This document shows positions 9,592-59,562 of a DNA stretch of 64,000 nt, in pieces. Source of the stretch: an uncultured delta proteobacterium (lineage in GTDB: Bacteria > Desulfobacterota > BSN033 > UBA1163); contig CAVPSJ010000017.1 of assembly GCA_963708295.1 (NCBI GenBank), positions 256,001 through 320,000 on the forward strand, written 5' to 3'. Below the pieces are notes generated by a model, which did no database searches, had not been told where the DNA came from, and saw only the letters and a list, made by a program, of their open reading frames with translations. How positions within the stretch are numbered: the first letter of the stretch is position 1; each line of letters opens with the position of its first letter. The position numbers and the translations under genes were made by a program.

Positions 9592-9786
9592 GAGATCGAA
9601 TCTTTATCCTTTCCCTATATTTCACGAAAGTTTCCTTTTCACCCCAGACTTTTCCCCTGAAAACGAAGAAATATCTGCACCGCCACCCTGCGGATTTCTG
9701 ATTGGAATATACATATTTTATGAGAGTTGGTCAACCGAAACTTTCAGAAAAAAAAGAGTCAAAGAAGGTGGGCTGGTTGTTCCACC
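9592..9786 (-). repeat. Array repeat copy 1
   Basis: Matches consensus ..CCTATATTTCACGAAAG..GAAAACGAAGAAATATCTGCACCGCCACCCTG..GATTGGAATAT..TTGGTCAACCGAAACTTTCAGAA. Confidence 0.95.
9706..9734 (-). promoter_or_regulatory. sigma70-like promoter inside the repeat (example copy; present in most copies)
   Basis: Minus strand TTGACC-N17-TATATT; other copies have -10 variants TATACT or TATTCT with the same spacing. Confidence 0.75.
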
Positions 9787-9924
9787 TCCTACTAACCCAC
9801 GCCGTTGGTTTGCGGGGAGAAAACCAATTATTTATTGAAAGCAAAAACAGAGGTTCAGGATGAATAGACAACTTTTGCCTCGCTGTGGAGATACTGCATC
9901 CGTTCTTGCGAAAATGAAAGAAGG

Positions 9925-10957
9925 TTAAAAATCATTGATCGAATCAATAAGACTCCTGAGCCTGCCGAAGTCCTTGCGGTTAAAGTCTATCACAAGTCGC
10001 GGCAGATGAATAACATCCGCATCATCCATTTCAGCTTCCAAAGCCTCGGACGCCGCGATTCTTCCCCCGGGCAGAATGATGTCATGAAACTGATCTGTCA
10101 GCTTCTGGATGTCATCGGGGCCGAGCTGAGATGTGAGCCGGATCACGAGTTGGCCATGCACATACCGCATGCTGTGATAGCGGAAATAGAAATGCTGAAT
10201 CTTCTCCACCGCATCATCCACGGAACATACCCGTTCAAAGAGCGCAAAGTCCGATGGGCCAATATAGTTACGAGCCAGGAGCTCTTCCTCGAAGAGCTTG
10301 ATCAGGTGGGACCAGTAGGAACATTCAGGATCGTCCACGAGCACAAGCGGCATGGGATTGCGTTTGCCGGTTTGTACCAGGGTGAGCGTCTCCATCGCCT
10401 CGTCGAGCGTGCCAAAGCCGCCCGGGAAGAGCGCCACGGCATCCGCTTCTTTAAGGAAGGCAACTTTGCGGTTGAAAAAATATTTGTACGTGATGAGCCG
10501 CGGGTTACCCTCGATCACGGAATTCGGCTTCTCCTCGAACGGCAAGCGGATGTTCACACCGAAGGAATGCTCGGCGCCGGCTCCCTCGTTGACGGCCTGC
10601 ATGATGCCTCTTCCTCCGCCGGTGATGACCATATAACCAGTCTCAGCGAGCTTTTTCCCGAAGAGCTTTGCCATCTCGTAGATCGGATCGCCCGGCTGGG
10701 TGCGCGCCGAGCCGAAGACCGTGACCTTGCGAACATTCCGGTAGGAGCCGAAGACCTTGGAAGTGAACCGCATCTCCTTCAGCGTCGTGTTCATGAGCTT
10801 GAGGTCCGCGCCCTCGTCGTCCTCCTGCCCGGCCTTTGAGTGAGGCGATGATCATTTCGCGGACGTATTTCGGCCTCCGGATGCCCCCGGCGGTCTCCAT
10901 CAATTTCTCGATGATCTCGTCAATGGGACCGTTATTTTTTGTGAAATAAATTTTCAT
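9925..10957 (-). CDS. LOG-family (TIGR00730-like) protein, frameshift near 10835
   Basis: VTVFGSART, ITGGG.GIM and PGGFGTLDE motifs; N-terminus MKIYFTK.. lies in the adjacent frame. Confidence 0.9.
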
Positions 10958-11103
10958 GATTTCTCTGTTATCGTGTAGGTACCTGCTTTGATGATAAGCC
11001 TTTTTTAGTCTTTTTTCGAGAAAGATGATGGATTTTCCCCTCTGAACCGTCTCGCCCACTCCATAAAATGGGGACACATACCACTTTCCTTTTTGAGATC
11101 TCC

Positions 11104-11298
11104 GGGGTCGAATCTTTATCCGTAACTTTGCCTATATTTCACGAAAGTTTCCTTCTGACCTCAGGTTTTTTCCCTAAAGCGAAGAAATATCTGCGCCGCC
11201 ACCCTGTGAATTCCTGATTGGAATATATCTATTTTACGGAAATTGGTCAACCGAAACCTTCAGAATGGAAGATTCAAAGAAGCGGGCTGGTTGTTACA
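11104..11298 (-). repeat. Array repeat copy 2
   Basis: Full-length match from GGGGTCGAATC to GGGCTGGTTGTTACA. Confidence 0.95.
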
Positions 11299-11420
11299 AT
11301 TACAGAGAGCTATGAGGGCGGGGATTGCGTGTGAATAAGCCGTTTAAGCCCACCAATAAAACAGGTCAAGATTAGACGGCGCATTCTGCCCTTCATTCTC
11401 TCATCTCTAAAAATCTCTCC

Positions 11421-11948
11421 TCAATATCCCCCGGGATTGACAAGATCAATCATGACATACCCTAATCTTGGGAGATCCCTGTGCTCGAAGGGAAGAGGCA
11501 GTTTATATTTATACGGATCCGGAATCCCCGACTCGAATGTAAACGGAAAAACCGCTATGTTGCTTTCGTTACCCGTTTTGTCGAGAATGGAAACCTTTAA
11601 GGTAATGCTTGTCCACTCGCTGATATATCCAGCTTTTGAACTGTAGGTATTCCATTGAACATATCCTCGAAAGTGCTTCCGAAATTGCGGCTTGAGGTAG
11701 ATCCAATCGGTGGGGTAACGACCTTGGCCGGGCCCATCCGCCACTAAGGCGATTCTAAGCATATTTTCATCGGGATCGTCTGCCTCGATGTAAATTCTCC
11801 AGATATACCCGTAATATCCCTTCTCGACCGCAAAGGCATGGGTAATCACGGGTGCTCTCGTCTCTGATTTAGGTTGCGCCCATCCTGAAGACGCCATGAG
11901 GAGAACCAATAACAATGCACCGACAAAGTAAAGATTATTTTGATTCAT
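11421..11948 (-). CDS. Hypothetical secreted protein
   Basis: AAGGAG RBS, signal peptide, 175-aa ORF. Confidence 0.75.
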   Translation of the reverse strand: MNQNNLYFVGALLLVLLMASSGWAQPKSETRAPVITHAFAVEKGYYGYIWRIYIEADDPDENMLRIALVADGPGQGRYPTDWIYLKPQFRKHFRGYVQWNTYSSKAGYISEWTSITLKVSILDKTGNESNIAVFPFTFESGIPDPYKYKLPLPFEHRDLPRLGYVMIDLVNPGGY

Positions 11949-12131
11949 GCTCGCTCCTTAAACTAAAATTAAGAACTCAAAGTCTCAATTTCAAGGTAGT
12001 AAAAGGCGCTAAGATTGGGGGCAAACGAAGAGAGGTCGGGCTATCCATTTTGAAATAAGGCTAAGACCTTCTCCCACTCTTCACTTTGAGGTAACTCGAT
12101 TAAGTTGACGATGAGGAATGAAAATTTGCAC

Positions 12132-12161
12132 AAAAAAAGCAGAGCCAATTCTGACTCTGCT
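12132..12161 (-). terminator. Rho-independent terminator
   Basis: GCAGAG/CTCTGC stem followed by a T7 tract on the minus strand. Confidence 0.6.
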
Positions 12162-12419: not shown

Positions 12420-12619
12420 GGAGTCGAATCTTTATCCTTGACTTTGCCGATATTTCACGAACATTTCCTTCTGACCCGAGGCTTTTTCCCCCTGAAAACG
12501 AAGAAATATCTGCGTTGGCGCCCTGTTGATTCTTGATTGGAGAATACAAATTTTATGAGAGTTGGTCAACCGAAACTTTCAGAAAGGAAGATTCAAAGAA
12601 CTGGGCTGTTTGTTTCACC
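12420..12619 (-). repeat. Array repeat copy 3
   Basis: Full-length consensus match. Confidence 0.95.
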
Positions 12620-14168: not shown

Positions 14169-14364
14169 GAGGGCAAATCTTCATCCTTGACTTTCCCCAT
14201 ATTTCACGAACATTTCCTTCTGACCCCAGGTTTTTTCCCCTGAAAACGAAGAAATATCTACACCGCCACCCTGCGGATACTTGATGGGAATATACATATT
14301 CTATGAAAATTGGTCACCGAAACTTTCAGGAAAAGGAATAAAAGAAGCGATTTGTTTGTTACAC
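14169..14364 (-). repeat. Array repeat copy 4
   Basis: Full-length consensus match. Confidence 0.95.
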
Positions 14365-14486
14365 GTAATGTTCAACTCAGCATAGTTTGTGAAGCCAACC
14401 GCTATAAAGATGTTTTTTGACAAAGAGTTGTCGATAGGATTTGGGGTTACCCATTTGTTCCCCATTTGTTACAAGGGGTCATTTAG

Positions 14487-14909
14487 TCACTGACTCCCGT
14501 CCGTCGCTGCAAGTCTTTTTAAAATCTCTTTTATCATGCCGTTTCTGTCCTTCCGGATTTCTCCTGCAAGCCGATGAACACGTTCCGGAATTTCGAAATA
14601 TTCGTTACCCCATAAGATGATTTCAAAGAGGATAGGCATGAGATCGATCCCCTTGGGAGTTAATTGGTAAAGGTTTTTTGCCTTATTTCCGGGAAAGGCT
14701 CTTTTTTCGACGATCCCGTTCTTTTCCAGAGTGAGTAGACGATCGGCAAGGATATTCGTCGCGATCTTTTCTTCGGATTGCAAAAACTCGCCGTACGTTC
14801 TTTTTCCTTTGAACATCAGGTCCCGTATGATCAGCAGTGTCCACTTATCGCCCAAGATGTCGAGAGTGGTACTGATAGGACACGTCGATCTCCTGGTGAG
14901 TTTCTTCAT
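14487..14909 (-). CDS. HxlR-family winged-helix regulator
   Basis: RSTCPI..LDILGDKWTLLIIRDL..Y.LT.KG.DL.P. Confidence 0.92.
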   Translation of the reverse strand: MKKLTRRSTCPISTTLDILGDKWTLLIIRDLMFKGKRTYGEFLQSEEKIATNILADRLLTLEKNGIVEKRAFPGNKAKNLYQLTPKGIDLMPILFEIILWGNEYFEIPERVHRLAGEIRKDRNGMIKEILKRLAATDGSQ

Positions 14910-15056
14910 ACTTAAAGAATATACGAATTACTTGCATAAAACAAGTAGATGTTTTATATTACTTGCAATTCGCAAGTATGTCGCCGGGAGAACTCATGGT
15001 CATAAAGCCGGATATGTGCTTCAGAAAATTGATTGTCAGAAGGAGGAGTTATGGTT

Positions 15057-16094
15057 ATGGAAAACAAAATACGGGAAAAGGCTCTGAAACTTGGATACGA
15101 GGACTGCGGTATTATTAGAGTCGGCGCCTTGGCCGGTTATCGCGAAAAGCTGGAGGAGCGCATCTCGCGGATACCCATGGGAGAGAAAATATATGGGCGC
15201 TATAGGAGTTATGCGGACCCCTCGGCGGATAATCCCGAGATAAAATCCATCATCGTCGCTATCGTTCCTACCTACAGGTACAACGTGCCCGGCGAATTCG
15301 ATGGCGTCTACGGCAAGGCCTACATGTTCGATGGCAGAACGGACGAACAGGCGCCCTTTTTCAGCAAACGCAGGGAATTCTCCACGTTTCTCGAAAGCCT
15401 CGGTCTTACATGCATGTTGGGCAGCAGTTTTGGAATCCCGGCGCCAGCCCGCTGGGCAGCGTATCAGGCAGGGCTCGGCATCATCCGCCAGAATAATTTC
15501 TTCTACACCAAAAACGGGTCATATAATCACATAGAGATGTTCGCAGTAGATCGGGAGCTCGAACTCATTCGCGACGTGAAACTCAAAGAGTGCTCGAAAG
15601 ACTGCAACAAATGCATCGGAGCCTGCCCTACCCATACGCTGAGCGCACCCTATACCATGTCGATGATCGGGTGTGCTAGCTTTCAGACTTCCATCTCGGC
15701 GAATACGGGAATGGCCGTACCATCTCCTGAGATGACGGAGCAAATAGGTTGCAGGCTGTACGGCTGCGACGTTTGCCAGGACGTATGCCCCTTTAATAAG
15801 GGCAAATGGACAGGCGGTGAGGACTTCCCGGGGCTTGAGGCGCTGGCGCCGTCAATGCGCCCGGAAAGTATCATGGAGATGAGCTATGATGAGATCGGCC
15901 GCACGTTGGCTCCCAAATATTGGTACATAAAGCCGGAAAACCTCTGGAAATGGAAACTGAACGCGCTGACCGTCATGATGAATGGCTACAGCGAGAAATA
16001 TGAAGCGCCAATAAAGCTCGGGCTTGAAGACCCCAACGAAACTGTGCGCGACTTCACGCGCGGCATCTGCTCGAAGCTGGGAATATCGTTTTAA
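15057..16094 (+). CDS. QueG-like (epoxyqueuosine reductase family) 4Fe-4S dicluster protein
   Basis: AGLG.I..N, C..C..CI.ACPT and YGCD.CQDVCPFN motifs; divergent from the HxlR gene; AGGAGG RBS. Confidence 0.8.
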   Translation: MENKIREKALKLGYEDCGIIRVGALAGYREKLEERISRIPMGEKIYGRYRSYADPSADNPEIKSIIVAIVPTYRYNVPGEFDGVYGKAYMFDGRTDEQAPFFSKRREFSTFLESLGLTCMLGSSFGIPAPARWAAYQAGLGIIRQNNFFYTKNGSYNHIEMFAVDRELELIRDVKLKECSKDCNKCIGACPTHTLSAPYTMSMIGCASFQTSISANTGMAVPSPEMTEQIGCRLYGCDVCQDVCPFNKGKWTGGEDFPGLEALAPSMRPESIMEMSYDEIGRTLAPKYWYIKPENLWKWKLNALTVMMNGYSEKYEAPIKLGLEDPNETVRDFTRGICSKLGISF

Positions 16095-16155
16095 GGCGTG
16101 TATTCTTCTCTCTCCACGATCCTGTTCCGTTTTTGTATTAAACGGAAAAGGGTCC

Positions 16156-16295
16156 GGGTCGAACCTTCTTATATTTCACAACAGTCTTCTTCTGTGCGCA
16201 GGGTTTTTTCCTGAAAATGAAGAAACATTTGCACCGCCACCCTGTTGATTCTTGATTGGAATATACAAATTTTGCGAAAATTGGTCAGCCGAAAC
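16156..16295 (-). repeat. Array repeat copy 5 (degenerate, right-truncated)
   Basis: Core GCACCGCCACCCTG..GATTGGAATATAC..TTGGTCAGCCGAAAC. Confidence 0.9.
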
Positions 16296-17049: not shown

Positions 17050-17187
17050 GTGAAGAAAGATCGACGTCGCCACCCTGTCTGGATTGTCGATTGATGATTG
17101 TTGTTTGGAATATACAAATTCTGTAAAAATTGGTCAACCGAAACTTTCAGAATGGAAGATTCAAAGAAGTGGGCTGTTTGTTACACC
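17050..17187 (-). repeat. Array repeat copy 6 (left-truncated, heptamer-expanded)
   Basis: CGCCACCCTG..TTGGAATATAC..TGGTCAACCGAAACTTTCAG..GTGGGCTGTTTGTTACACC. Confidence 0.92.
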
Positions 17188-18100: not shown

Positions 18101-18227
18101 TGAAAACGAAGAAATATCTGCACCGCCACCCTGGGGATTCTTGATTGGAATATATCTATTTTATGAAAATGGGTCAACCGAAACTTTCAGAAAGAATGAA
18201 TCAAAGAAGCGGGCTGTTTGTAACACC
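18101..18227 (-). repeat. Array repeat copy 7 (left-truncated)
   Basis: Right two-thirds of the consensus. Confidence 0.93.
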
Positions 18228-18394
18228 ACATAGAGTGAAGATTGGTTATTAAAGGTATTGAAGATTTACAATTGGAAAAGATACTAGAATGTATACAGGG
18301 GGTGGTAAAATGGATCCAACGTGTATTCTCCGCAGTCGATGAATCTTTTGCAAAGAAGTAATCAGCGTATTGAAACGAAAATGTCCGGTATTTG

Positions 18395-18970
18395 TCAACG
18401 AAGACTGAATAGTTCTTTCATGCAGGACCAAGCTTCTGGTGAAGACCAATCCCTTTGTCCTATAATCTTTCCTACCAATATCCCTTCTTGATCGACTAGA
18501 AATATTTGAGGAACCCAACCCCTTACTCCATATTGGTCCATCGTCTTTTCCTTCAAGAGTAAGAGGACGGGAAGGGTGATCTTGTTTTGATCGATGATCT
18601 TTTGAGCGGCTGTCTTTCTTTCTCCATCAATGGTAATAAAAAGGAAAACTAACTTATCTCTTTTACCTTGGGAGAATTTTTCAAGAGCTAACAGCTCTTC
18701 TCTGCAAGATTGTCACCAGGTGGCCCAAAATACGATGAGAACAGGTTTCCCTCTAAAGTCACTAAGAGAAATTTGTTTTCCATCCAGCAACTCCTTGAGT
18801 GAAAAAGCAGGAGCTTCTTTCTTTTCCTGAGATCTCTGAACACCAAAAGAATTACAGGACGGACATTCCGGTGGAGAGGGAGAAGCAGCCCTTACGATCT
18901 GAAGGCAAGGGATGAGCATAATAGTCATTCCTATCACGATTGAAAGCGAAAGAACGATTCTTTTTTTCAT
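18395..18970 (-). CDS. TlpA/redoxin-family thiol-disulfide oxidoreductase, selenoprotein (UxxC)
   Basis: APAFSL..ISLSDFRGKPVLIVFWATW-TGA-QSC; frame stays open 105 further codons (..VPQIFLVDQEG..IIGQRDW); hairpin 13 nt after the UGA. Confidence 0.88.
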
Positions 18971-18985
18971 CTCCACCTCCCCAAA

Positions 18986-19468: not shown

Positions 19469-19670
19469 ACTTATTCTCCCTCTTCTTTCAATATTGCCAT
19501 TCTACTTGCCATTGTAGTAAATCTCATAACCGATGTCCATTAGCTTTTTGTCCAATAGGAGTATCGAAGAAGATTCAAGGAAGAAACATTATGAAGAAGA
19601 ATAAATAGAGGGAGGTTGCTGGAAAATTATTACTTTACAGACGTAGTATCGCTCCGCGCAGTTATTGAAA

Positions 19671-19864
19671 GCGAATCTTTACTCTTCACTTTGCCTATAT
19701 TTCACGAAGGTTTCCTTCTGACCCCAGGCTTTCTTCCTGAAAACGAAGAAATATCTACACCGCCACCCTGCGGATTCCTGATTGGAATATATCTATTTTA
19801 TGAAAATTGGTGAACCGAAACTTTCAGAAAGAACGGGTCAAAGAGGTGGGCTGTTTGTTACACC
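19671..19864 (-). repeat. Array repeat copy 8
   Basis: Near-full consensus match. Confidence 0.95.
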
Positions 19865-19892
19865 AAAGCGATTTCTTGACTCGATCCTCCGT

Positions 19893-20399
19893 TCACCATA
19901 TGAATCTTAATCTTTCTCTCCATGTCTTTGGCAGAAGATTCCCCACAGCTTTCCAGTGACGGACCTCAGAAGGCGCGCACATCACGACCGCCGCAAAGAA
20001 TATCATTGGAAGGTCAAGGAAGATGGTTACAGAGGCCAATGTGTCTCCGAACGCTCCAAAACAACCGCAATCAACGCTACGCCCTTGTAAAAACACAATG
20101 GCCTTGGCAATGAAAAAAGATAAGCTCAGCAGGCCAATCCCCAAAGCCGATAATCGGGTTAACACTCCGAAAAGTAAACCTAATCCACACAGCAGTTCAA
20201 TGAAAGGCAAGGCCAGCCCAAAAGGACGGGCTAAATAGAAGGGCAGGATAACAAAGAAGTAAACGGCCTGCACCGAGTAACGCTCAATATCAACCATTTT
20301 CCCAAAGGCCGCTACAAGAAAAGAAACTGCCAATATCAAGCGAAAGCAGAGAACAACGGTTTTTGCGGTTTTCTTACGTGAATTTTGAATCATATTCAT
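19893..20399 (-). CDS. DoxX/MauE-family membrane protein
   Basis: R.ILA..FL.AA..K, LP.IEL..GL.L and DCGCFG motifs. Confidence 0.88.
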   Translation of the reverse strand: MNMIQNSRKKTAKTVVLCFRLILAVSFLVAAFGKMVDIERYSVQAVYFFVILPFYLARPFGLALPFIELLCGLGLLFGVLTRLSALGIGLLSLSFFIAKAIVFLQGRSVDCGCFGAFGDTLASVTIFLDLPMIFFAAVVMCAPSEVRHWKAVGNLLPKTWRERLRFIW

Positions 20400-20503: not shown

Positions 20504-20705
20504 GGGATCGAATCTTTATCCTCAATTTTGCCTATATTTCACGAAAGTTTTCTTCTGAAAACAAAGAAATATTTACACCGCCACCCTGCGTTGATTGTCG
20601 ATTGCTGATCGAAGATTGTTGATTCTTGATTGGAGTATATCTATTCTATGGAAATTGGTCAACCGGAACTTTCGGAAATAAAGAGTCAAGAAGTGGGCTG
20701 TTTGG
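20504..20705 (-). repeat. Array repeat copy 9 (internal deletion plus heptamer expansion)
   Basis: Consensus ends present; six GATTxxx-like heptamers in the middle. Confidence 0.93.
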
Positions 20706-21600: not shown

Positions 21601-21762
21601 GGGGTCGAATTTCTATTCTCGACTCTGCCTATATTTCACGAAAGTTTCCCTCTGACTCCTGGCTTTCTTTCCATGAAAGCGAAGAAGTATCTGCGCCGCC
21701 ACCCTGATGATCGTTGATTGGAGTATATAAATTTTATGAAAATTGATCAATTGAAACTTTCA
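21601..21762 (-). repeat. Array repeat copy 10
   Basis: GGGGTCGAAT through GAAACTTTCA. Confidence 0.93.
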
Positions 21763-21772
21763 TCAGAACATC

Positions 21773-21802
21773 TTGACAATATACAAGGTTTGTATATATA
21801 CT
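21773..21802 (+). promoter_or_regulatory. Toxin-antitoxin operon promoter with palindromic operator
   Basis: TTGACA-N18-TATACT enclosing the palindrome ATACAA-GGT-TTGTAT. Confidence 0.65.
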
Positions 21803-21825
21803 TTATCAAAAGGGAGGTATTGAAG

Positions 21826-22071
21826 ATGAAGTCAAGTACGGTGAATATCTCTTTCAGCGATGACCTCCTGAAGAAGATAGATCAAACGGCACGAGAAGAG
21901 TCTCGATCACGGTCGGAACTCATTCGGGAGGCGGCGCGAGGATACATTGATCGAAAGCGTCGGTGGAAGCAGATATTTGATTTCGGCAAAATCAACGCCG
22001 CCAAGAAAGGGATTGCCGAGGCCGATATCGAGACTGAAATTGCTGCCTACCGCAGAGAGAAAAAGAAATAG
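21826..22071 (+). CDS. CopG/ribbon-helix-helix antitoxin
   Basis: VNISF...LL..ID..A....SRSELIREA; GGAGG RBS. Confidence 0.88.
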   Translation: MKSSTVNISFSDDLLKKIDQTAREESRSRSELIREAARGYIDRKRRWKQIFDFGKINAAKKGIAEADIETEIAAYRREKKK

Positions 22072-22479
22072 ATGCTCAAGGTCGTTTTGGATACGAATGT
22101 CCTGATCTCGGCCATTCTCTTCGGAGGTAAACCCAGAAAGATTTTGGAGAAAGCCATCCGTGGGGAGATACGATTGTGTCTATCAGAACCAATGCTGGAA
22201 GAACTCAGTGGGGTTTTGCGAAGGTCGAAATTTGACTACTCTCCTGAGATGATCCAATTCATCCTCACGGAACTGATGGGTATTGCAGATTTCGTGAATC
22301 CATCGGAGACCATTCACGTAGTATTGGAAGATCCCGAGGACAACAAGATCCTGGAATGCGCGGTAGAAGCCAAAGCGAATTATATCATTACTGGAGATTC
22401 TCACCTTCTGAAGCTAAGCAGGTACCTCCATATAGAAGTCCTGAATGCGGCTGCTTTTTTAGAAAAAACCGAGGCGTGA
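22072..22479 (+). CDS. PIN-domain toxin (TIGR00305-like)
   Basis: VVLDTNVLISA..DPEDNKILECA..YIITGDSHLL. Confidence 0.92.
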   Translation: MLKVVLDTNVLISAILFGGKPRKILEKAIRGEIRLCLSEPMLEELSGVLRRSKFDYSPEMIQFILTELMGIADFVNPSETIHVVLEDPEDNKILECAVEAKANYIITGDSHLLKLSRYLHIEVLNAAAFLEKTEA

Positions 22480-22481
22480 TC

Positions 22482-22766
22482 ATGATCAAGAACGGTATGC
22501 GTCCTATTCATCCAGGCGAGATATTGCGTGAGGATTACATGGTGCCGCTGGGGCTGTCAGCCGTCGCTTTGGCCCACGCGTTGGGTGTGACGCCCGCCCG
22601 CATCAACGACATTGTGCGGGAACGGCGCGGCATCACAGCGGATACGGCGTTACGTCTGGCGCGGTACTTCGGAACGGATGCGCAATCGTGGATTAACCTG
22701 CAGACCGCATGCGATCTCCGCGTGGCTTCGCCGACACCCTCAGGATTGACGATTGATGATTGTTGA
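22482..22766 (+). pseudogene. higA: HigA-family antitoxin; C-terminus replaced by repeat sequence; no higB
   Basis: MRPIHPGEILREDY..ITADTALRLARYFGT..W.NLQ, then runs into repeat copy 11. Confidence 0.8.
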
Positions 22767-23937: not shown

Positions 23938-24110
23938 GGGGTCGAATCTTATGGGCTTCGCCTATACTTCACCAAAGTTTCCTTCTCACCCCGGCTTTTT
24001 TCCCCTGAAAGCGAAGGAACATCTGCACCGCCACCCATTTCATTGACAATTGATGATTGTTGATTGGAATATTACAAATTTTGTGGGAGTTGGTCAACCG
24101 AAACTTACAG
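23938..24110 (-). repeat. Array repeat copy 12
   Basis: Consensus match with heptamer expansion. Confidence 0.93.
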
Positions 24111-26104: not shown

Positions 26105-26115
26105 GAATGTGCTTT

Positions 26116-26203
26116 GGGGTCGAAATATCTGCGTTGGCACCCTGTTGATTCTTGATTGGAGAATACAAATTTTATGAGACTTGGTCAACCGAAACTTTCA
26201 GAA
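26116..26203 (-). repeat. Array repeat copy 13 (internal deletion)
   Basis: GGGGTCGAA joined directly to ATATCTGCG through GAA microhomology. Confidence 0.92.
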
Positions 26204-29486: not shown

Positions 29487-29687
29487 GGGGTCCCAATCTT
29501 CATCCAGGACTTTGCCTGTACTAACACGAGCATTTCCTTCTGACCCCAGGTTTCTTTCCCGAAAAACGAAGAAATATCTGCACCGCCACCCTGTGGATTG
29601 TTAATTGGAATATATCTATTTTGTGAAAATTGGTCAACCGAAACTTTCAGAAAGAGGGACTCACAGAAGCGGGCTAGTTGTCACACC
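29487..29687 (-). repeat. Array repeat copy 14
   Basis: Full-length consensus match. Confidence 0.95.
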
Positions 29688-32052: not shown

Positions 32053-32237
32053 GGGGTCGAATCTTTATCCTCAATTTTGCCTATATTTCACGAAAGTATT
32101 CTTCTGCCCCTAGGTTCTTCTCTTGAAAATGAAGGTATATCTGCACCGCCACCCGTCGGATTGGAATATATCTATTTTATGAAAATGGGTCAACCGAAAC
32201 TTTCGGAAAGAATGAGTCAAAGAAGTGGGCCGGTTGT
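32053..32237 (-). repeat. Array repeat copy 15
   Basis: Full-length consensus match. Confidence 0.95.
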
Positions 32238-36108: not shown

Positions 36109-38070
36109 CTAATAATTTCTGTAAGTGACATTACCGTTCTCATCGATCTGTCTATAGATTTTGTCCTTTGTTCCAGAAATATCTTTTGTGATGTATCCAA
36201 TATAGAAGTTAGAACCTCGATACACGCCCTGAAACTTCGTTATATTACATCCGATTTTTTGCTTCACAACATCAGCTAAACTTGGGATGTAAGGATATCT
36301 TGACCTTGATACATTGGAATCTTCGTAAGCAAACGCGTCGCCTATATGGATTATTGTTATGCTTTGTGCTCCTCCGACTCTGCTGTCCTTTGAACCAGAA
36401 AGATAGATTTCCGAGAGACGTGCGTCTGATGAAATATGTAAGCGCCATATTACTGGTTCATGAGAACTCAAAACTAATTTCACAGGCAGATCTGTATGAC
36501 TAATATGGATGTCCACATTGCCGGCAATTTTCTCCGCCCCACCCCTGCTGCGATTGTCTGCTAAGCTTCCTTCATAGACACCGATTGCCTCTATTTGGAA
36601 ATTCTGACAATTTATCTGCGCTGGTGCAATACCTTTATCCCTATCCTTGTCAGGGGCTTTGATAGGCATATCTTGAGAGATTACCTCTCCTATAATATTG
36701 CTAAACCTATCTAAGCCCGTCTTAGAGGGCACTTTTAATGTCTTTAATTCATGGGGTGTGGCAAGAAGCACCTGGCCGTTTGCTAAAGGCGCTGTTCTAC
36801 TATTTGCGCCTGTGTGCTCAGCTATCTTTTTAGCGGTTTGTGCAACCATATCAACATAAAATGCTTCCATGTTTTGATCCGAGAACCATGCTTCCATAAG
36901 TAATAGATCTGTATGTTTAATCTGTGTCAGGATAGCATGCGAGAGGTTTGGAAACTTCAGTTGACGAATCCCCTTCAAGTCCGGCAATCTTCTTTGTACT
37001 ATCAAACCTCGCGGCAAAGTAGCGTAAAATGATTTATTATCATTAGCGAAAGCTATCGCAAGCGGCTTAAGATTAGAACCCTCCACCTGTTCTGTTGCAC
37101 GCAGAACGAAAGAGGGGGCTTCATCCATTGCTTTCACGAGTTCCCAGCTCTCTATGGAATGATCTCGAACTGCAATCAAGTACTTGTCGTCAGAGCTCAT
37201 TGCCATCAAAGAAATCCACTCCCTACCTTCTGCCACGTTCCAGGTAGCTTCTCCTTTTATTACATCATAAATGCCAATTCTGTATCTGTCGGGGAAAGAA
37301 TCGGAATAGACAAAATATCGTCCTTGAGAGGTAAGTAAGTGGTTATGTTGCGTAAGTGTTTTGTGTCTAAGCAATTCACCGGTCCTAACATCCCACATCA
37401 TCAGCTTTGCCCTTGGCACATAAAAAGAGCCAATCAATATTCTGCCGTTTGGATCCAAGAAGAAATGAACACCAGGCCTGCTGATTTTGGCATCGAAGGT
37501 TTCTATTCGATTAATAAGCCGCCTGCTAGCAAGGTCAAATATCTCTGTCATATTATTATTGAATTCGACGGCGGCTATTGGAGCATCTGCTGATACGACA
37601 ACTGAGCGAGGCACGGCCCGATTCGTGTTGTATTCTTGTGAATAGGTTAGGTCCGTTGTGTTGTCTGGAAGCGTGCCTTGCGAGGGGATGTCATACAAGA
37701 GGCCTATTCTCTGGTTATTTAAGGCTTCAATCCGCTGGATATCGAAAGCTTCATAACATTCTGAGAGCTTCTTGTCGTCTTTCTTAACGTCCTCATCCAT
37801 TAATTCAGAACAGTGGCTTTTTCTCAATCTGAGCCAATCTTTATGCTCGAGTGTTAAAGCTTTTACTCTCGCTGGATTTTTTTCCAAGGCGAGCAATGAT
37901 GAAAATGCGGATTCTACTTTGTTTGCCGCAATGATTCGTTTGTCGCCGTCAGGGGTTGATTTTGTTATGTCGGTGATATCTTGATTACATCCGTTTAAAG
38001 TGAAAAATAGGAAGAGGAAAGCACTAAGGGGAATAATAAAAATAATCGTTACAGTTTGTCGTTCTGCCAC
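36109..38070 (-). CDS. Secreted/lipoprotein LprI-like + beta-propeller protein, paralog 1
   Basis: Collinear and similar to 33930-35870; LNGC lipobox; GTG start with GAGG RBS. Confidence 0.78.
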   Translation of the reverse strand: MAERQTVTIIFIIPLSAFLFLFFTLNGCNQDITDITKSTPDGDKRIIAANKVESAFSSLLALEKNPARVKALTLEHKDWLRLRKSHCSELMDEDVKKDDKKLSECYEAFDIQRIEALNNQRIGLLYDIPSQGTLPDNTTDLTYSQEYNTNRAVPRSVVVSADAPIAAVEFNNNMTEIFDLASRRLINRIETFDAKISRPGVHFFLDPNGRILIGSFYVPRAKLMMWDVRTGELLRHKTLTQHNHLLTSQGRYFVYSDSFPDRYRIGIYDVIKGEATWNVAEGREWISLMAMSSDDKYLIAVRDHSIESWELVKAMDEAPSFVLRATEQVEGSNLKPLAIAFANDNKSFYATLPRGLIVQRRLPDLKGIRQLKFPNLSHAILTQIKHTDLLLMEAWFSDQNMEAFYVDMVAQTAKKIAEHTGANSRTAPLANGQVLLATPHELKTLKVPSKTGLDRFSNIIGEVISQDMPIKAPDKDRDKGIAPAQINCQNFQIEAIGVYEGSLADNRSRGGAEKIAGNVDIHISHTDLPVKLVLSSHEPVIWRLHISSDARLSEIYLSGSKDSRVGGAQSITIIHIGDAFAYEDSNVSRSRYPYIPSLADVVKQKIGCNITKFQGVYRGSNFYIGYITKDISGTKDKIYRQIDENGNVTYRNY

Positions 38071-38112
38071 TTTCTTCCTCTTCAGATAGCTTTCATTTCT
38101 GGTGCCTTTGTA

Positions 38113-38268
38113 AAGCAACAATTATGCCAGCTTAATAATGTTTGTAACATATTGCAATTAAATTGCATTTTGAGCGATTGCCAAACAAATTCCCTCAAAA
38201 TGGCTAATTCCTATATGTCTCGTGACAATCTTGAACCTATTATTCCCGGGCCACTGATCCGCTTCAGG
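38113..38268 (-). promoter_or_regulatory. sigma54 promoter and upstream module, copy 1
   Basis: TGGCATAATTGTTGCT; about 155 bp homologous to 62563-62717. Confidence 0.7.
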
Positions 38269-38370: not shown

Positions 38371-38427
38371 GGGGTCAACCGAAACTTTCAGAAAGAGGGA
38401 CTGAAAGAAGTGGTTGCTTTGTTACAC
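38371..38427 (-). repeat. Array repeat copy 17 (collapsed)
   Basis: GGGGTC fused to AACCGAAACTTTCAG through GGTC microhomology. Confidence 0.85.
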
Positions 38428-38567
38428 TTACACTGTTCGTTGAGAGATATCATGGAAAACAATGATGACGGGTCGAAATGTGCATGAGTATAACCGAAAA
38501 AACCAAGAGGAGTGGGCTATGGTCAACAACCCACTCCTCCTTGCTTACCGGACACGATCACTTTCGT

Positions 38568-40830: not shown

Positions 40831-41021
40831 GAGGCCGAATCTATTCTTTACTTTGTCTGTATTCCACGAAAGCCTTATTCTGACCCCCGTTTATTTCCGG
40901 GAAATGAAGAAATGTCTGCGCCGCCCCCCTGCGAATTTCTGATTGGAATATATAAATGTTATGAAAATTGGTCAACCGAAACTTTCAGAGAGAAAGAGTC
41001 AAAGAGGTGCCCCCCTTGTTA
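40831..41021 (-). repeat. Array repeat copy 18
   Basis: Degenerate full-length match. Confidence 0.92.
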
Positions 41022-41040: not shown

Positions 41041-41985
41041 TTATCGAAACCCATAATAGTTGGCAACCTGCTCGGCAATTCGACCGATGGCGTCCTCAAG
41101 GTAGGGACCGATGCCGTAGTGATGGGCCGTAAAGATCGAGAGCACGACGTGAGACTTCTCACTTTCAAACAGTCCCACATCATTGGCGATAAAGGGCAAG
41201 AAATCGCCCGTCTTATGGGGCACGACATAGCCCGTCACATACTTGGGAATACGGGTTCCATAAATCTGCCCACGCATGATGGTCAGCATCTGCTCGCTTG
41301 CCTTCCGACTCACAGCTTTTCCACGGGAGATTTTCTCGAGCAGTTTTCCCGCGTCCCGTGCGGAGGAGAGCCCGAATGGCGTCTTTCCCTCAGCATGAAA
41401 AGCAGCCGCATTCGGGGCGGCCTGCAACGCAGTGAACCAGGCCTCGGTAGTCCCGGTGGCTCGAATCGTTTTCAGGCCATAGCTCTGCATTAATTTGTTC
41501 ACGGGTTCAATGCCGCCGACCTTTTCAAAAAGAATATCGGTCGCGGAGTTGTCACTGAGGATGTTCATCAGGACGATCAGATCTTTGATCGTCAAAGTGC
41601 CGCCGTCGGCGAGGGTCCGGATAATCCCGGTTCCGGGTCGTTTGTCTTGGGCTTGGATCGTGTAGCGATCGTCTAAGGAGAAGCGGCTTGCTTCGATCTG
41701 ACGGAAGACTTCAACCATGAGGGGAAGCTTGATCACACTCATCGTGTCCATCGTTTCATCCGCGTTGATGGCGATTTCCTCATCGGTTTCCAGGCATTTG
41801 ATGTAAATCCCCCACTGGGCATCCACACTCTTGCTGATCCGTTCGATGTTCGAGCGCAGACGCTGTAGAGGTGTCTGGGGTGGTGACTGTTGGGCGTCGA
41901 GGGGCTTGCTCAGGGAAAAAAGCAAGAAGACACAGAAAGCGAGTCCAACGCGGTGAACCCTTGCCGAACCCGAGCGGATCATCAT
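41041..41985 (-). CDS. Class A beta-lactamase-related serine hydrolase
   Basis: SVIK (SxxK), SDN and KTG motifs; signal peptide. Confidence 0.88.
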   Translation of the reverse strand: MMIRSGSARVHRVGLAFCVFLLFSLSKPLDAQQSPPQTPLQRLRSNIERISKSVDAQWGIYIKCLETDEEIAINADETMDTMSVIKLPLMVEVFRQIEASRFSLDDRYTIQAQDKRPGTGIIRTLADGGTLTIKDLIVLMNILSDNSATDILFEKVGGIEPVNKLMQSYGLKTIRATGTTEAWFTALQAAPNAAAFHAEGKTPFGLSSARDAGKLLEKISRGKAVSRKASEQMLTIMRGQIYGTRIPKYVTGYVVPHKTGDFLPFIANDVGLFESEKSHVVLSIFTAHHYGIGPYLEDAIGRIAEQVANYYGFR

Positions 41986-42018: not shown

Positions 42019-42216
42019 GGGGCCAAATTTTTATTCTTGGCTTTGCCTATATTTCACGAACATTTCCTTCTGACCCCAGGCTTTTTCCCTGAAAACGAAG
42101 AAATATCTACGCCGCCACGCTTCCGGATTCCTGATGGGGAATATATCTATTTTATGAACATTGGTCAACCGAAACTTTCAGAGAGAGGCTCACATCAGTG
42201 GGCTGCTTGGAACACC
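42019..42216 (-). repeat. Array repeat copy 19
   Basis: Full-length consensus match. Confidence 0.95.
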
Positions 42217-44340: not shown

Positions 44341-44538
44341 GGGGTCGGATCTTTATCGTTTGCTTTGAGTATATTTAACGAAGGTTTCCTTCTGACCTCA
44401 GGCTTTTCCCTCGAGAATGAAGAAATATTTACACCGCCACCCTGTTGATTGCTGATTGAAATATATCTATTTTATGAACATTGGTCAATCGAAACTTTCA
44501 GAAACGAAGTGTCCAAGAAGTGGGCGGTTTGTGGCACC
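44341..44538 (-). repeat. Array repeat copy 20
   Basis: Full-length consensus match. Confidence 0.94.
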
Positions 44539-44750
44539 TGCAAGTCCTTATCTTTAGATCGAACACAAAACTGAGGGTTATTGGTTAAAATCTTGAATAG
44601 AGGATTGGCGAGTTATCAGCCCATAGGAGAATGGATTAGGCAATGGGGGCCTGGATAGAAGTGAGGGGGGTTGGGACATGCGATGTCATGGCCGCAAGCC
44701 AATCGAGAGCATCACTCTCTCGTCGTTTCAAAGGCATTTACTCGCATCGC

Positions 44751-45437
44751 TCAGCTAATGAGCACTGCAAGGATCTTCGCAGGCTTACCTCCGTGAGCTT
44801 TCACCAAATGCATGCTCGTTGAATCGTAGTAGACAGAGTCTCCGGGTTTCAGGATGTCTCTGGTGTCCTCTATGACGACTTCCATTTCGCCATCCAGGAC
44901 GTAGATGAACTCCTGCCCGTCGTGCGAAGAAGGCTCATCGGCTCCGGAGGAATGGAGCGTAACAATGAATGGCTCCATCGCCCGATCTTTCTTTCCGGCA
45001 GCCAGGGATTCGTATTCGTATCCGCAGCTGGCCTCCCTGGCTTTTCCGAATCGAGAAAAACTCAGACGCTGATCCGATCTCACGATGGTAAACGACTCTT
45101 TGCCTGTAGATATGACATCCGCCATCCGAAGAGAAAGGGCCTTGCTGAGTTTAATTAGCTGCCCCAGAGGCAGCATGAACTCACCGACTTCAACTCGGGC
45201 CAGCGCGTCTCGCGAAATGCCGGTTCTTGCGGCCAACTCGTCAAGGGAAAACCCGCGCTTTTCCCGGGCTGCGCGGAGCATATCCCCGTGGCTCACCGCC
45301 TTTTCGCGTTCCGCTTTTTCGCTGGCCTTTGCGATAGCGGCAGGGTCAGTGAGAAAGTCGGGTCCCTTGTCTTCGCCGCAGTCTGACGCTGTCTCTTGAA
45401 ACTCTTCGTAAGACATCGCGTTTTTTTTCTCATCCAT
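44751..45437 (-). CDS. XRE-family HTH plus cupin regulator
   Basis: LR.ARE.RG.SL.ELA HTH; MEPF, H.GQEFIYVL.G, GDS.YYDS..H. Confidence 0.92.
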   Translation of the reverse strand: MDEKKNAMSYEEFQETASDCGEDKGPDFLTDPAAIAKASEKAEREKAVSHGDMLRAAREKRGFSLDELAARTGISRDALARVEVGEFMLPLGQLIKLSKALSLRMADVISTGKESFTIVRSDQRLSFSRFGKAREASCGYEYESLAAGKKDRAMEPFIVTLHSSGADEPSSHDGQEFIYVLDGEMEVVIEDTRDILKPGDSVYYDSTSMHLVKAHGGKPAKILAVLIS

Positions 45438-45515
45438 GTTTGATCCTTTCAGCCGCTGTGTATGGCACGCTGTCTCCTGGCGCAGTCCTACATGGATCTG
45501 CCGGCAAATGGCTCT

Positions 45516-45705
45516 GGGGTCGAATCGTTATCCTTGACTTTGCCTATATTTCGAAAAAGTTTCCTTCAGGTTTTTTCCTCGAGAATGAAGAAATGTTTAC
45601 ACCGCCACCCTGTTGATTCCTGATTGGAATATATCTATTTTATGAAAATTGGTCAACCGAAACTTTCGGAAAGAGAGACTCAAGGAAGTGGGCTGTTTGT
45701 TACAC
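45516..45705 (-). repeat. Array repeat copy 21
   Basis: Full-length match with a short internal deletion. Confidence 0.95.
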
Positions 45706-46596: not shown

Positions 46597-46822
46597 GGGG
46601 TCAAACTCTTATCCTTGGCCGGAATGTGCCCCGTCCCGCCAAAGCGGGGTCGAGGGGCACAATATGAAAGAAACTTCCTCTCCGGGAAGCCCCGCCCTGT
46701 GGGCGGGGAGCTTCACTTTGCCTATATTTCACGAAAGTGTCCTTCCGATCCCAGGCTTTTTTGCCTGAAAACGAAAAAATATCTGCGCCACCCCCCTGCG
46801 GATTCCTGATTGGAATATACAC
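46597..46822 (-). repeat. Array repeat copy 22, interrupted by a 97-bp element
   Basis: ATCCTTG|insert|ACTTTGCCTATATTTCACG restores the consensus exactly. Confidence 0.93.
46618..46714 (+). mobile_element. IS200/IS605-like miniature (PATE-type) element, copy B
   Basis: Clean insertion with no target duplication; subterminal hairpin CCCCGCCC-TGT-GGGCGGGG followed by AGCTTC. Confidence 0.75.
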
Positions 46823-50084: not shown

Positions 50085-50284
50085 GGGATCGAATCATTAT
50101 CCTTGACTTCGTCTATGTTTCACGAACGTGTCCTTCTGACCCCAGGTTTTTTTCTCTGAAAACGAAAAAATATCTACGCAGCCACCCTGTGGATCCCTGA
50201 ATCGAATATATCTATTTTATGAAAGTCGGTCAACCGAAACTTTCAGAAAGAACACGCTAAGAAAGGGGGCTGTTTGTTAACGCC
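50085..50284 (-). repeat. Array repeat copy 24
   Basis: Full-length consensus match. Confidence 0.95.
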
Positions 50285-50392: not shown

Positions 50393-52346
<1,954 letters not shown>

Positions 52347-52542
52347 ACACCTTATCCTTTCCGACAGATTTTGCCTTGAACGCCATAGCATAGCCGCACT
52401 GTTTATTTGTCATTCATAATATAACTTTTATTTTAAAACTAGGGAAGTGAATGTTTCAAGGAAGGAGTGCTCAGGCAAGGGGTTGCGGACTTTTGGGCAA
52501 TCCGCCCCATCGGAATCAAGTATTCCGGGATGGACTTTGGGG

Positions 52543-53650: not shown

Positions 53651-53884
53651 CCTACATCGCCACCCGGTTGATTTCTGATTTGAATATACAAATTCTATGA
53701 AGATTGGTCAACCGAAACTTTCAGAAAGAAAAAGTCAACCCTTCGACTCCGTGGCCTGGAGGTCGGTGCTCTTGTTCGACCCAATCTCAGCCGACGGGCT
53801 CAGGGTTGACTGAACGGCGCTTCGTACCTTCACCGGTGCTTGGCGCCGCCGAACGGGTCAAAAAGGGGAGCTGGTTGTTTAACC
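53651..53884 (-). repeat. Array repeat copy 25 (left-truncated, interrupted)
   Basis: CGCCACCC..TTGGTCAACCGAAACTTTCAGAAAG..GTCAA|insert|..GCTGGTTGTT. Confidence 0.88.
53739..53861. mobile_element. 123-bp palindromic insertion flanked by GTCAA direct repeats
   Basis: GTCAA at 53734 and 53857; inverted repeat GTCAACCCT/AGGGTTGAC; REP-like CCCTTCGACTCCG..CTCAGGG arms. Confidence 0.6.
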
Positions 53885-56371: not shown

Positions 56372-56494
56372 GGAAACGAGGAAATATTTATGCCCACACC
56401 CTGTTGATGGTTGATTGGAATATACAAATTTTATGAAAATTGGTCAACCGAAACCTTTTCAGCAACAAAGACTCAAAGAGGTGGGCTGTTTGTT
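56372..56494 (-). repeat. Array repeat copy 26 (left end apparently displaced to stub at 55940)
   Basis: Right two-thirds of the consensus; GGGGTCGAATTTTTA lies on the far side of the GIY-YIG gene. Confidence 0.9.
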
Positions 56495-56561: not shown

Positions 56562-56585
56562 GGCTTTTGACGATTGAAGATAGGA

Positions 56586-57920: not shown

Positions 57921-57951
57921 GGAGGTCCAAATCTCTTATGGGTATGGTATT

Positions 57952-57967
57952 TGCAACTTTGGTGCCG
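57952..57967 (-). promoter_or_regulatory. sigma54 promoter of the mltB-like gene
   Basis: Minus strand CGGCACCAAAGTTGCA (GG-N10-GC). Confidence 0.6.
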
Positions 57968-58243
57968 CATTTTTGTAGCACCGTAACTATTTGTTATTAT
58001 AAATTTATCTTGAACTGCCCGATATTTTAACCAAACTCAAAATTGAAAGGCTTTTCCACAAAAGTCCCGAATTACTTCCCCTAAAGGGGAAGATCTGTTT
58101 TCATTTCTTGTTGTGGGTCGAGGGGATTGTTGATTATCAGAAATCTGGCGAGAAGTGTAGATTCCTAACTTGACGGCTTCAGGAAATACTTCCGACCGCA
58201 GGCCCTTTCACGTTTCAAGGTCAGCGGGGAGGGAGGGTTGGAC

Positions 58244-58663
58244 TCAGATATAATCCTCCCACTTCTGTCCTGTGTCGACCAGGGGTCTAATATCATAGAC
58301 TTCAAATTCTACCGCGGCGTAGATGGCCTTTGCTGCCTCCTCTGAAACTCTCGCAGCAACCTGTTTTCGAAAAGCAATCAGTTCATCTCCCTCGGTCTTG
58401 TAACCGGTCATTCTTAGATAAACTCTGAGTCCCCTCCATTCACTGGTGGTCTTTCCTGGCTCCATAATCATAAAGACAGCGTAAGGGTTCTCCTGAAGGT
58501 TAGCAAAGGTCCGGTTCTTTCTTGTTGCCATGATGACTCTTTTTTCACCTGTCATCCTGGGAGAGCCGAAAATAGCTACATTGACCCGTCCGTCTTTCTC
58601 GGCTGTACTGAGCGAACCGAGCCTGGGCATCTTGTTAAAATATTCCATCAGTTTTGCTGACAT
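58244..58663 (-). CDS. Pyridoxamine 5'-phosphate oxidase-family (FMN split-barrel) protein
   Basis: LSTA..DG.VNVA..GSP..RT..NL.ENP.A. Confidence 0.85.
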   Translation of the reverse strand: MSAKLMEYFNKMPRLGSLSTAEKDGRVNVAIFGSPRMTGEKRVIMATRKNRTFANLQENPYAVFMIMEPGKTTSEWRGLRVYLRMTGYKTEGDELIAFRKQVAARVSEEAAKAIYAAVEFEVYDIRPLVDTGQKWEDYI

Positions 58664-58701
58664 AAAACCCTCCTTCCGTACCAATTAAGCAAATGATTGT
58701 A

Positions 58702-59436
58702 TTATTCTGCCTTCCTCGAATGTGTCCCGATGGTCCAGTTCCTCGTTCTTTTTACAAAATCCTTTACCTCATTTTCATCCCTGAAATCCCCTTGGCCGCA
58801 ATCATCATAATGAACCATCTTTTTCGGATCCCTCATGAACTTCTCACTGGGATGAAGGGCAGGGTAGCCAATGGCCATCATGTCATAAGGCTCCATCTCG
58901 ACCGGAACTCCCAATAGATCCTTTACCATGCAACTTGTGAAGGGAGTGGTGACCGCAGATACCCACTGAGAGGCCAATCCCAGGGTGGCAGCGGCCAAAT
59001 GCATGTATAAAAAAGCACTGGCAAGGCTTGAGGTGAAAGTCAACTGGCAACGATTTTGATCATACCTGAGGCCCATCGGGAGTCCTACCTTGGTTCGGGT
59101 ATCCCCAAGAAGGATGATGAACACAGGCGCTGTGGTAAAATCCATTCCCGCGTCGAGTACGCCCGAAGTCGTCCAGGGTTTTCCCTGCCAGGATTCTCTG
59201 GTGCCCTCCATGCTTTTTGCCAGTTTCCAATATTCGCCGATATATTCAACAATCTTTTTCCTCAGCTCCGGCTTTTTAACCACGACAAACTCCCAAGGTT
59301 GCAGGTTGAAACCCGATGGCGCCCAGCGGGCAACCTCAATGATCTTGTCTATGGACTCATCAGGGATCGGGTCCGGCTTGAAACGACGTATACTCCTTCT
59401 CTTTTTCACCAGCGTCAGCAGGCTATCGTAATCCAT
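58702..59436 (-). CDS. Nitroreductase-family protein
   Basis: RRSIRRF, ARWAPSG.N.QPWEF, LAA..LGL.SQW, IGYP. Confidence 0.92.
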   Translation of the reverse strand: MDYDSLLTLVKKRRSIRRFKPDPIPDESIDKIIEVARWAPSGFNLQPWEFVVVKKPELRKKIVEYIGEYWKLAKSMEGTRESWQGKPWTTSGVLDAGMDFTTAPVFIILLGDTRTKVGLPMGLRYDQNRCQLTFTSSLASAFLYMHLAAATLGLASQWVSAVTTPFTSCMVKDLLGVPVEMEPYDMMAIGYPALHPSEKFMRDPKKMVHYDDCGQGDFRDENEVKDFVKRTRNWTIGTHSRKAE

Positions 59437-59470
59437 GCCAATCTCCTTCTTTTTATCCCCTGTCATTCTC

Positions 59471-59562
59471 TTGGAATATATCTATTTTATGAGAATTGGT
59501 CAACCGAAACCTTCAGGAAGGATGAGCCAGAAAAATGAAGGGATTTGGGGTCAACTCTTTAC
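59471..59562 (-). repeat. Array repeat copy 27 (promoter part only) plus left-end stub at 59547
   Basis: TTGGAATATATCTATTTTATGAGAATTGGTCAACCGAAAC; then GGGGTCAACTCTTTAC. Confidence 0.88.

Follow-up and report, generated by a model that had tools for sequence, protein, structure and literature searches.

Integrons are the textbook route by which bacteria stockpile and express accessory genes, but with Pc as the only promoter, expression of cassettes far from it is poor, a known weakness of the system. The Correia elements of Neisseria are repeated intergenic elements able to supply a promoter to an adjacent gene; they are miniature inverted-repeat transposable elements (MITEs), with terminal inverted repeats, and are dispersed in both orientations. 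Michael and Labbate 2010 (PMC2945992) and Blanco et al. 2024 (PMC11014356) describe integron cassettes as generally promoterless and Pc-dependent, with diverse, cassette-specific intra-array promoters that sit in particular or gene-less cassettes and do not belong to the conserved sequence of each recombination site. One promoter reported in Vibrio sp. DAT722 bridges an attC junction, with a -35 that lies inside attC and is common to several attC sites and a -10 that is unique to one cassette (PMC2945992). The promoter-early stem-loops (PeSLs) of T4-like phages are described by Arbiol et al. 2010 (PMC2839356) and Comeau et al. 2014 (PMC4122927) as repeated cassettes of a sigma-70-like promoter and a terminator stem-loop that precede non-essential variable genes and mediate modular shuffling by homologous exchange, that is, gene insertion, deletion and replacement between close relatives; these accounts report experimental demonstration of both promoter activity and mini-circles. 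Here we describe an array of a ~245-nucleotide (nt) repeat on a 64,000-nt stretch of DNA (the window; positions 256,001 to 320,000 of contig CAVPSJ010000017.1, assembly GCA_963708295.1) from an uncultured delta proteobacterium, a relative of sulfate-reducers. We consider it likely that a true sigma-70 (RpoD-type) promoter, probably under regulation, forms the conserved core of this repeat, which probably also provides homology for the exchange of cargo genes.

The array lies on contig C17 of a 4.95-Mb genome and occupies positions 9585-59538 of the window, with unrelated cargo genes between the repeat copies. Using an nhmmer profile built from the window copies (E ≤ 0.01), we called 29 copies or fragments, all on the minus strand, and we put the size of the array at 28-29. 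A previous reading of this DNA, made from its letters without database searches (the sequence-only reading), had counted 27 copies. Start-to-start spacings are mostly 850-2000 nt, and the units between repeats are co-oriented and mostly single-gene, as in integrons and in clusters of attC sites lacking integron-integrases (CALINs). Outside the array, the host genome holds one further repeat, a solo partial copy on contig C4, and 21 of the 22 genome matches to a 15-mer of the repeat core (at most one mismatch) fall inside the one array. Arrays of the same repeat were found in six other species of the genus. The array is 50 kb long in the window and about 62 kb in one relative, and within each array examined all repeat copies are on one strand. 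A representative full-length copy, drawn from the nhmmer matches and the folds, lies at 19662-19894 (minus strand; model positions 11-243).

To locate the putative promoter, we searched the window for TTGACC-N17-TATANT with at most one mismatch. Twenty-three matches were found, 22 on the minus strand, all in repeat copies, and one at an unrelated plus-strand site (58581); shuffled sequences gave an expectation of 0.82, and none of 100 shuffles reached 23. Genome-wide, the exact form TTGACC-N17-TATATT occurs at 20 sites, 16 of which are repeat copies. The minus-strand block described by the sequence-only reading is therefore present in the repeat copies far above the shuffled background. In all, 23 repeat copies carry the -35/-10 block, and the spacing is 17 nt in 23 of 23. 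The -35 reads TTGACC in 19 copies and GTGACC, CTGACC, TTCACC or TTGATC in one each; the -10 reads TATATT in 18, TATACT in two, TATTCT in two and TAATAT in one. In the representative copy, -35 TTCACC (consensus TTGACC), a 17-nt spacer and -10 TATATT were placed at 19786-19814 by motif scan and alignment. The other blocks, likewise on the minus strand, include 11222-11250, 29609-29637, 32165-32193, 40947-40975, 44460-44488 and 50205-50233; copies with a variant -35 at 14289-14317 (GTGACC) and 21722-21750 (TTGATC, with -10 TATACT); copies with a variant -10 at 12541-12569 (TATTCT) and 20634-20662 (TATACT); and a copy at 24069-24097 in which a 1-nt insertion in the -10 leaves TAATAT at 17 nt.

Conservation was assessed in a profile alignment of 144 copies, of which the window supplied 28 and six further species of its genus 116. 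Top-base frequency averaged 0.967 over the 12 columns of the hexamers, compared with 0.847 in the spacer, 0.788 in the 18 nt that follow the block and 0.829 in the remainder of the repeat. When two hexamers 17 nt apart were placed along the repeat, the promoter pair ranked first of 182 offsets for conservation, and it did so whether the copies of the window and of the relatives were pooled or each set was taken separately. The sequence-only reading had held that hexamers no more conserved than their flanking columns would speak against a promoter; across the 144 copies they are more conserved. The -35 consensus TTGACC agrees with TTGACA at five of six positions, with columns at 0.97-1.00 over about 130 copies. 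In the -10 consensus TATATT, T1 (0.99), A2 (0.99) and T6 (1.00) are held, and position 5 is the weakest (0.80); the -10 variants TATACT and TATTCT noted in that reading do occur, and they keep both these bases and the 17-nt spacing. The spacer measures 17 nt in 125 of 126 copies, and other 17-nt segments of the repeat hold their length in 35-94%. It had been claimed that spacer bases vary, and this proved wrong for most of the spacer: the 3 nt before the -10 are the most variable nearby (top-base frequency 0.50-0.56), and the remainder stands at 0.81-0.98. The block thus has the features of a sigma-70 promoter, namely a -35 near TTGACA, a -10 near TATAAT in which T1, A2 and T6 are the most constrained positions, and a spacer of 17 ± 1 nt.

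Column conservation across the repeat is very uneven, ranging from 0.43 to 1.00. Coverage reaches its maximum at model positions 98-105 (134 of 144 copies), is at least 130 across positions 85-131 and drops on both sides, values that are somewhat inflated in the core since the profile that collected the copies is strongest there. Because coverage falls on either side, the core is the part kept by partial copies. In another genus of the same family, four same-strand copies of ~60 nt comprise an upstream palindrome, the -35, the spacer, the -10 and the first of the 7-nt units that follow it. Identities within and between genomes were 0.660 and 0.678 for module A of the repeat, 0.864 and 0.863 for module B, 0.773 and 0.753 for module C, and 0.756 and 0.762 for module D. 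Since copies within a genome are no more alike than copies in different genomes, they are old and have not been homogenised, which rules out concerted evolution and recent spread. A core conserved among such copies must be held by purifying selection.

We next consider the position of the block relative to genes. Of the 23 promoter-bearing copies in the window, 20 are followed downstream by a minus-strand gene as their nearest neighbour. The sequence-only reading had given this as 23 of 27 copies; the orientation bias stands, and one of its four exceptions is a fragment (22790-22726) without a -35. Across all species, a crude test based on the longest open reading frame (ORF) placed a same-strand gene downstream of 94 of 125 promoter-bearing copies and an opposite-strand gene downstream of 26, with 5 too near a sequence end. 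Truncated copies had been said to keep the block in front of a gene, and they do. In leaderless copies, the distance from the end of the -10 to the first start codon is 131 nt (block 17109-17137, which lacks the distal leader; ORF start 16978), 178 nt (18149-18177, also without the distal leader, upstream of a nitroreductase/ferredoxin gene), 51 nt (56419-56447, before a GIY-YIG gene) and 9 nt (59475-59503, before the ATG of the nitroreductase ORF 58702-59466); a further leader-truncated copy has its block at 53683-53711. Blocks also precede genes for an MFS transporter (26160-26188, -10 TATTCT), a class A beta-lactamase-family protein (42140-42168) and an XRE helix-turn-helix (HTH)/cupin protein (45628-45656). 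The solo copy on contig C4 lies 70 nt before an ATG that has a purine-rich GGGAAGGG stretch 8 nt upstream, and among the adjoining ORFs scanned with Pfam there was no transposase or recombinase. The host has a matching sigma factor, with two RpoD matches over the family cut-off. Upstream of its 16S rRNA gene we found TTGACA-N18-TAATAT and TTGACA-N17-TATTCT, canonical hexamers that include a -10 variant also found in the repeat, so the hexamers of the repeat fit the host. Together, these data show a sigma-70-like block that lies upstream of, and points at, genes in a host with the corresponding sigma factor.

The promoter block is embedded in further conserved sequence. In the representative copy, a 13-bp palindrome, CTGAAAGTTTCGG (19815-19827, minus strand; model positions 76-88), abuts the -35 and is centred near -42; in the promoter architecture it can also be written CnGAAAnTTTCnG. 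Its columns have top-base frequencies of 0.85-1.00 over 116-131 copies. The AT-rich spacer is itself near-palindromic. A second palindrome that resembles the first lies ~112 nt downstream, near +70 in the leader (GGAAACCTTCGTG in this copy, consensus GGAAACTTTCGTG; 19703-19715, minus strand). Just downstream of the -10 is a tract of nnAATCn heptads, of which this copy has two, at the predicted start site (19772-19785, minus strand). The tract holds about one to six units and varies in exact 7-nt steps, with lengths of 17, 24, 31, 38 and 45 nt for the segment at model positions 117-135; long tracts occur at 20590-20630 and 24040-24068. Such variation in heptad copy number could reflect slippage or a binding platform. 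The arrangement of palindromes, spacer and heptads suggests regulation by a DNA-binding protein, or a second function laid over the promoter. Genome-wide, the upstream palindrome, searched as GAAAGTTTCGG, was found at 15 sites in the array and only 2 elsewhere, against 8 for the reversed control, which argues against a genome-wide regulon. From the -10 to the 3′ end of the repeat is 128 nt; with a start ~7 nt after the -10, this leaves a common leader of ~120 nt, in keeping with the 110-120 nt proposed earlier. A possible leader peptide within it (GTG plus 7 codons, an 8-codon frame) was rejected, as its column frequencies lack codon periodicity.

The sequences themselves show the anatomy of the repeat, its pattern of conservation, its orientation and distribution, and the mosaic nature of the cargo; that the promoter is active, that the palindromes regulate it and that the repeats recombine is inferred. 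Each promoter-bearing copy would fire into the same-strand cargo gene or genes downstream. Full-length copies would yield the ~120-nt common leader, which has no conserved fold, and truncated copies a shorter, cargo-specific one. Each cargo gene would thus probably have its own switch without integron machinery. The repeats would double as homology for general recombination, by which the array could acquire, lose or exchange cargo; a dedicated integrase would not be needed, and a captured gene could be expressed at once under a shared control logic.

Several observations weigh against the promoter reading or restrict its reach. With a score of 0.951, the 13 nt that precede the -35 match the hexamers in conservation, and most spacer columns are conserved too, so part of the constraint must have a source other than RNA polymerase contacts; a second function thus overlaps the promoter, and it could be the primary one. 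The inflation of core coverage noted above counts on the same side. Three window copies face the 3′ ends of plus-strand genes: the terminal orphan copy (block 9706-9734, facing gene 8269-9522), the copy with -35 CTGACC (16260-16288, facing 15033-16094) and the copy at 33836-33864 (facing 32323-33579). Overall, 26 of 120 evaluable copies are directed at the 3′ end of a gene on the opposite strand. Several distances from promoter to start codon are long, at 404-593 nt. Terminator-like sites are not enriched (14 found, 22.6 expected), none lies in the repeat, and read-through from upstream could supply cargo expression anyway. The sequence-only reading had most units receiving their own promoter and leader; 20 of the 23 promoters are indeed aimed at genes, but there are roughly 45 genes for these 23 copies to serve, and several units can dispense with the leader. 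Among 15 public RNA-library (metatranscriptome) runs, 6 contained 5-9% of the words sampled from 9.9 kb of sequence. Contigs from four runs were short, of low depth and from relatives 90-99% alike, with DNA carry-over possible; as assemblies, they show no molecule starts or ends. Some of these contigs join repeats in other orders.

As a test of cargo exchange, we compared units between species. The units at 14169-16102, 18326-18980, 21734-22467 and 44420-45489 have counterparts with 85-92% nucleotide identity in other species, with different neighbours. The most widely shared cassette is the XRE-HTH plus cupin gene (44751-45437, minus strand; Pfam), which has orthologues of at least 90% identity in six further genomes rich in arrays; in the four checked for context (G010, G012, G004 and G006), the orthologue is on a contig that also bears repeat copies. 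The stretch of high identity around this unit begins ~50 nt ahead of the start codon, takes in the whole gene with its 3′ region and extends into the following repeat, where it stops at the GGGTGGCGG tract. Two species with a ~20 kb array in common differ by one ~1-kb cassette, both ends of which lie in repeat sequence, and across the repeat at this indel the identity drops below that of the surrounding cargo. The same module stands between unrelated genes in the co-oriented arrays of at least seven species, and cargo is shared across neighbourhoods; the repeats therefore probably supply homology. Other data temper this conclusion. Linkage between cargo and repeat module is weak, with few pairs: module A downstream of shared cargo scored 0.759 against a background of 0.681 (n = 9). 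The 5′ truncation points are scattered, with no one fixed base, so that support for a role in recombination is only indirect. Breakpoints away from a fixed base, along with the weak linkage, favour general recombination over a site-specific enzyme.

The XRE-cupin protein is a candidate regulator of the array. In two relatives, its gene has its own promoter-like site, TTGACA-N17-TATTCT, in place of the repeat. What looks like a diverged repeat copy upstream of the gene in two relatives recurs with the XRE-cupin upstream region in another genus; we therefore treat it as the cargo's own promoter and not as a degenerate repeat.

The upstream palindrome and most of the spacer, as conserved as the hexamers, speak for the alternative that the core is primarily a site for a recombinase or another DNA-binding protein, its likeness to a promoter being incidental or secondary. 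The second, similar palindrome ~112 nt downstream fits such a site, as does the high-identity homology between species, which often breaks inside or beside the core, and the 5′ truncations cluster at model positions 75-85. However, no recombinase is linked to the arrays, the genes flanking them are not conserved, and the junctions do not fall at one fixed position. A recombination core would also leave unexplained the TAnnnT pattern, the invariant 17-nt spacing, the variable 3 nt before the -10, and the orientation of copies and their distance to start codons; we regard this alternative as unlikely. If the promoter is real, its product could instead be the main point of the repeat, as a ~120-nt non-coding RNA or a riboswitch- or attenuator-type leader. 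The leader has 75-77% pairwise identity and many columns above 0.9, and on the RNA the 7-nt repeats at its 5′ end could serve as a platform for protein binding. Yet no Rfam family matched anywhere in the window at gathering thresholds, and 50 leader sequences gave no consensus structure or covariation (alifold 0.0 kcal/mol). The leader is also absent or shortened in many copies that keep the promoter, and its lone short frame (GTG plus 7 codons) is the one that lacks codon periodicity. We judge an RNA role of this kind to be quite improbable.

Less credible still is a degenerate integron, that is, a CALIN that has lost its integrase and whose repeats are attC sites of unusual length. Co-oriented, mostly single-gene units with a conserved repeat between them, accessory cargo and an opposite-strand toxin-antitoxin unit would all suit such an origin, as would integrase-like fragments in two relatives, which match the C-terminal part of integron integrases at 191 bits (model positions 188-315) in open frames of 135-141 aa, and a weaker one in the host genome (86 bits). 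These short frames, which cover only the C-terminal part of the model and score up to 191 bits (G010:C1:720402-721045, G003:C3:782919-783275 and G000:C4:1007421-1007618), look like integrase relics far from the repeat arrays, hundreds of kilobases away. No match to the integron integrase model TIGR02249 exceeded the cut-off in the host genome or five relatives. RNAalifold gave -3.1 kcal/mol with no compensatory pairs for 16 copies and 0.0 kcal/mol for 49-75 copies. Eight single-strand DNA folds of 150 nt contained no attC-type hairpin, only small local stems (z -2.0 to +0.8 in six of the eight), although no attC covariance-model search was made. The sequence-only reading had set the array apart from integrons, and the missing IntI match and attC fold bear this out. 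Partial copies end at many positions, and at ~245 nt the repeat is well above the 57-141 nt of attC sites. We give as little credence to a selfish or neutral dispersed, MITE-like element with no host role. Such an element would account for many copies, some partial, in one lineage only, but not for their confinement to a few co-oriented arrays, where 21 of 22 core 15-mer matches fall in one array. Neither fold nor alignment revealed terminal inverted repeats, and column conservation is very uneven, from 0.43 to 1.00, despite old divergence.

A regulated promoter that also supplies homology accordingly remains our preferred account of the core. A more far-reaching possibility, which we put forward tentatively and hold to be rather doubtful, is integrase-free gene capture on the chromosome, in which the regulated promoter module is itself the recombination handle and control is held in common, possibly through the palindromes and the XRE-cupin protein. 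Accessory genes would then circulate within this genus of uncultured Thermodesulfobacteriota by a cellular counterpart of the phage PeSLs and a functional alternative to integrons. If a conserved regulated promoter does serve as the junction repeat, it would solve the expression of distal cassettes in a different way from integrons and without a dedicated integrase, and the PeSL principle would also be at work on bacterial chromosomes, at a scale of 50-60 kb. The minimal promoter module is compact, at about 60 nt. As the cargo consists mostly of enzymes for foreign or unusual small molecules (esterases, nitroreductases, peptidases) and of transporters, the arrays may hold much of the adaptive repertoire of Thermodesulfobacteriota in soil and peat.

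By Pfam, the cargo is made up mostly of single, unrelated accessory genes on the minus strand. It includes an acyl-CoA dehydrogenase, nitroreductases, an HxlR regulator, a PilZ protein, an MFS transporter, a periplasmic binding protein, S15 peptidases, a carboxylesterase, a methyltransferase, the XRE-cupin regulator, a USP protein, an OYE-type reductase, SLT transglycosylases, a GIY-YIG protein and the class A beta-lactamase-family protein (41041-41985, minus strand; Beta-lactamase2, E 2.8e-55). The toxin-antitoxin-like unit (RHH, PIN and HTH domains; 21718-22766) lies on the opposite, plus strand within the array and has its own promoter-like site, TTGACA-N18-TATACT, at 21773-21802. The OYE/2,4-dienoyl-CoA-reductase-type gene is spread over two overlapping minus-strand frames, 50393-52054 and 51738-52391, one of which has the N-terminal FMN domain and the other the remainder, including the FAD/NAD domains; this split is probably a frameshift or a sequencing error. 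One long repeat-free unit contains tandem paralogous genes (33930-36200 and 36109-38121, minus strand) that encode proteins of 756 and 670 aa with no clear Pfam family; the two genes match in blocks that lie about 2.17-2.2 kb from each other, at 71-86% nucleotide identity.

At 46600-46720 (minus strand), the leader of one repeat copy is split by ~95 nt with two GC-rich hairpins, after which the 3′ end of the repeat follows; the insert looks like a small inserted palindromic element. A 126-nt direct repeat unrelated to the main one occurs at 38111-38236 and 62561-62686 (81% identity), and its copies each adjoin the upstream side of a different large minus-strand gene. Beside the array, gene 8269-9522 encodes a 417-aa protein that matched no Pfam family and was found in one of the four relatives searched, far from the arrays of that genome. 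In tblastn searches with 10 flank proteins, the arrays had no flank genes in common except a CoA ligase at non-syntenic positions. A tRNA scan of the window returned none.

Among known systems, the Correia elements resemble the present repeat in being repeated intergenic elements able to supply a promoter to an adjacent gene; in contrast to them, it has no inverted termini and stands in one-way arrays. By analogy, the closest known functional counterpart is the PeSL. Both place a repeated sigma-70-like promoter before non-essential, variable genes, and both cluster in hyperplastic regions. PeSLs are points of homologous exchange; the present arrays have cargo mosaicism and one repeat-bounded cassette indel, and the promoter would be the point of exchange here too. 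The two differ in that the present repeat is chromosomal, exceeds the short phage element four- to fivefold in length when complete (~245 nt), and is set in long one-way arrays (50 kb and about 62 kb). Whereas the PeSL joins its promoter to a stem-loop terminator, the present repeat has no stable stem-loop or terminator; its additional parts are the palindromes, the heptads and the long leader that full-length copies have in common. PeSL activity and mini-circles are experimental results; the activity of the present element is predicted from sequence. With sedentary chromosomal integrons and CALINs, the array shares long, co-oriented series of single genes, a conserved repeat and opposite-strand toxin-antitoxin units, as well as array-internal transcription, which is predicted here. 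At 38373-38454 (minus strand), a repeat fragment stops directly after the -35 and the cargo contributes CATGAT 18 nt on, a hybrid promoter-like junction that recalls the attC-bridging promoter of Vibrio sp. DAT722. Unlike integrons, the array comes with neither an attC fold nor an IntI match over the cut-off, and the most conserved part of its repeat is a complete -35/-10 pair.

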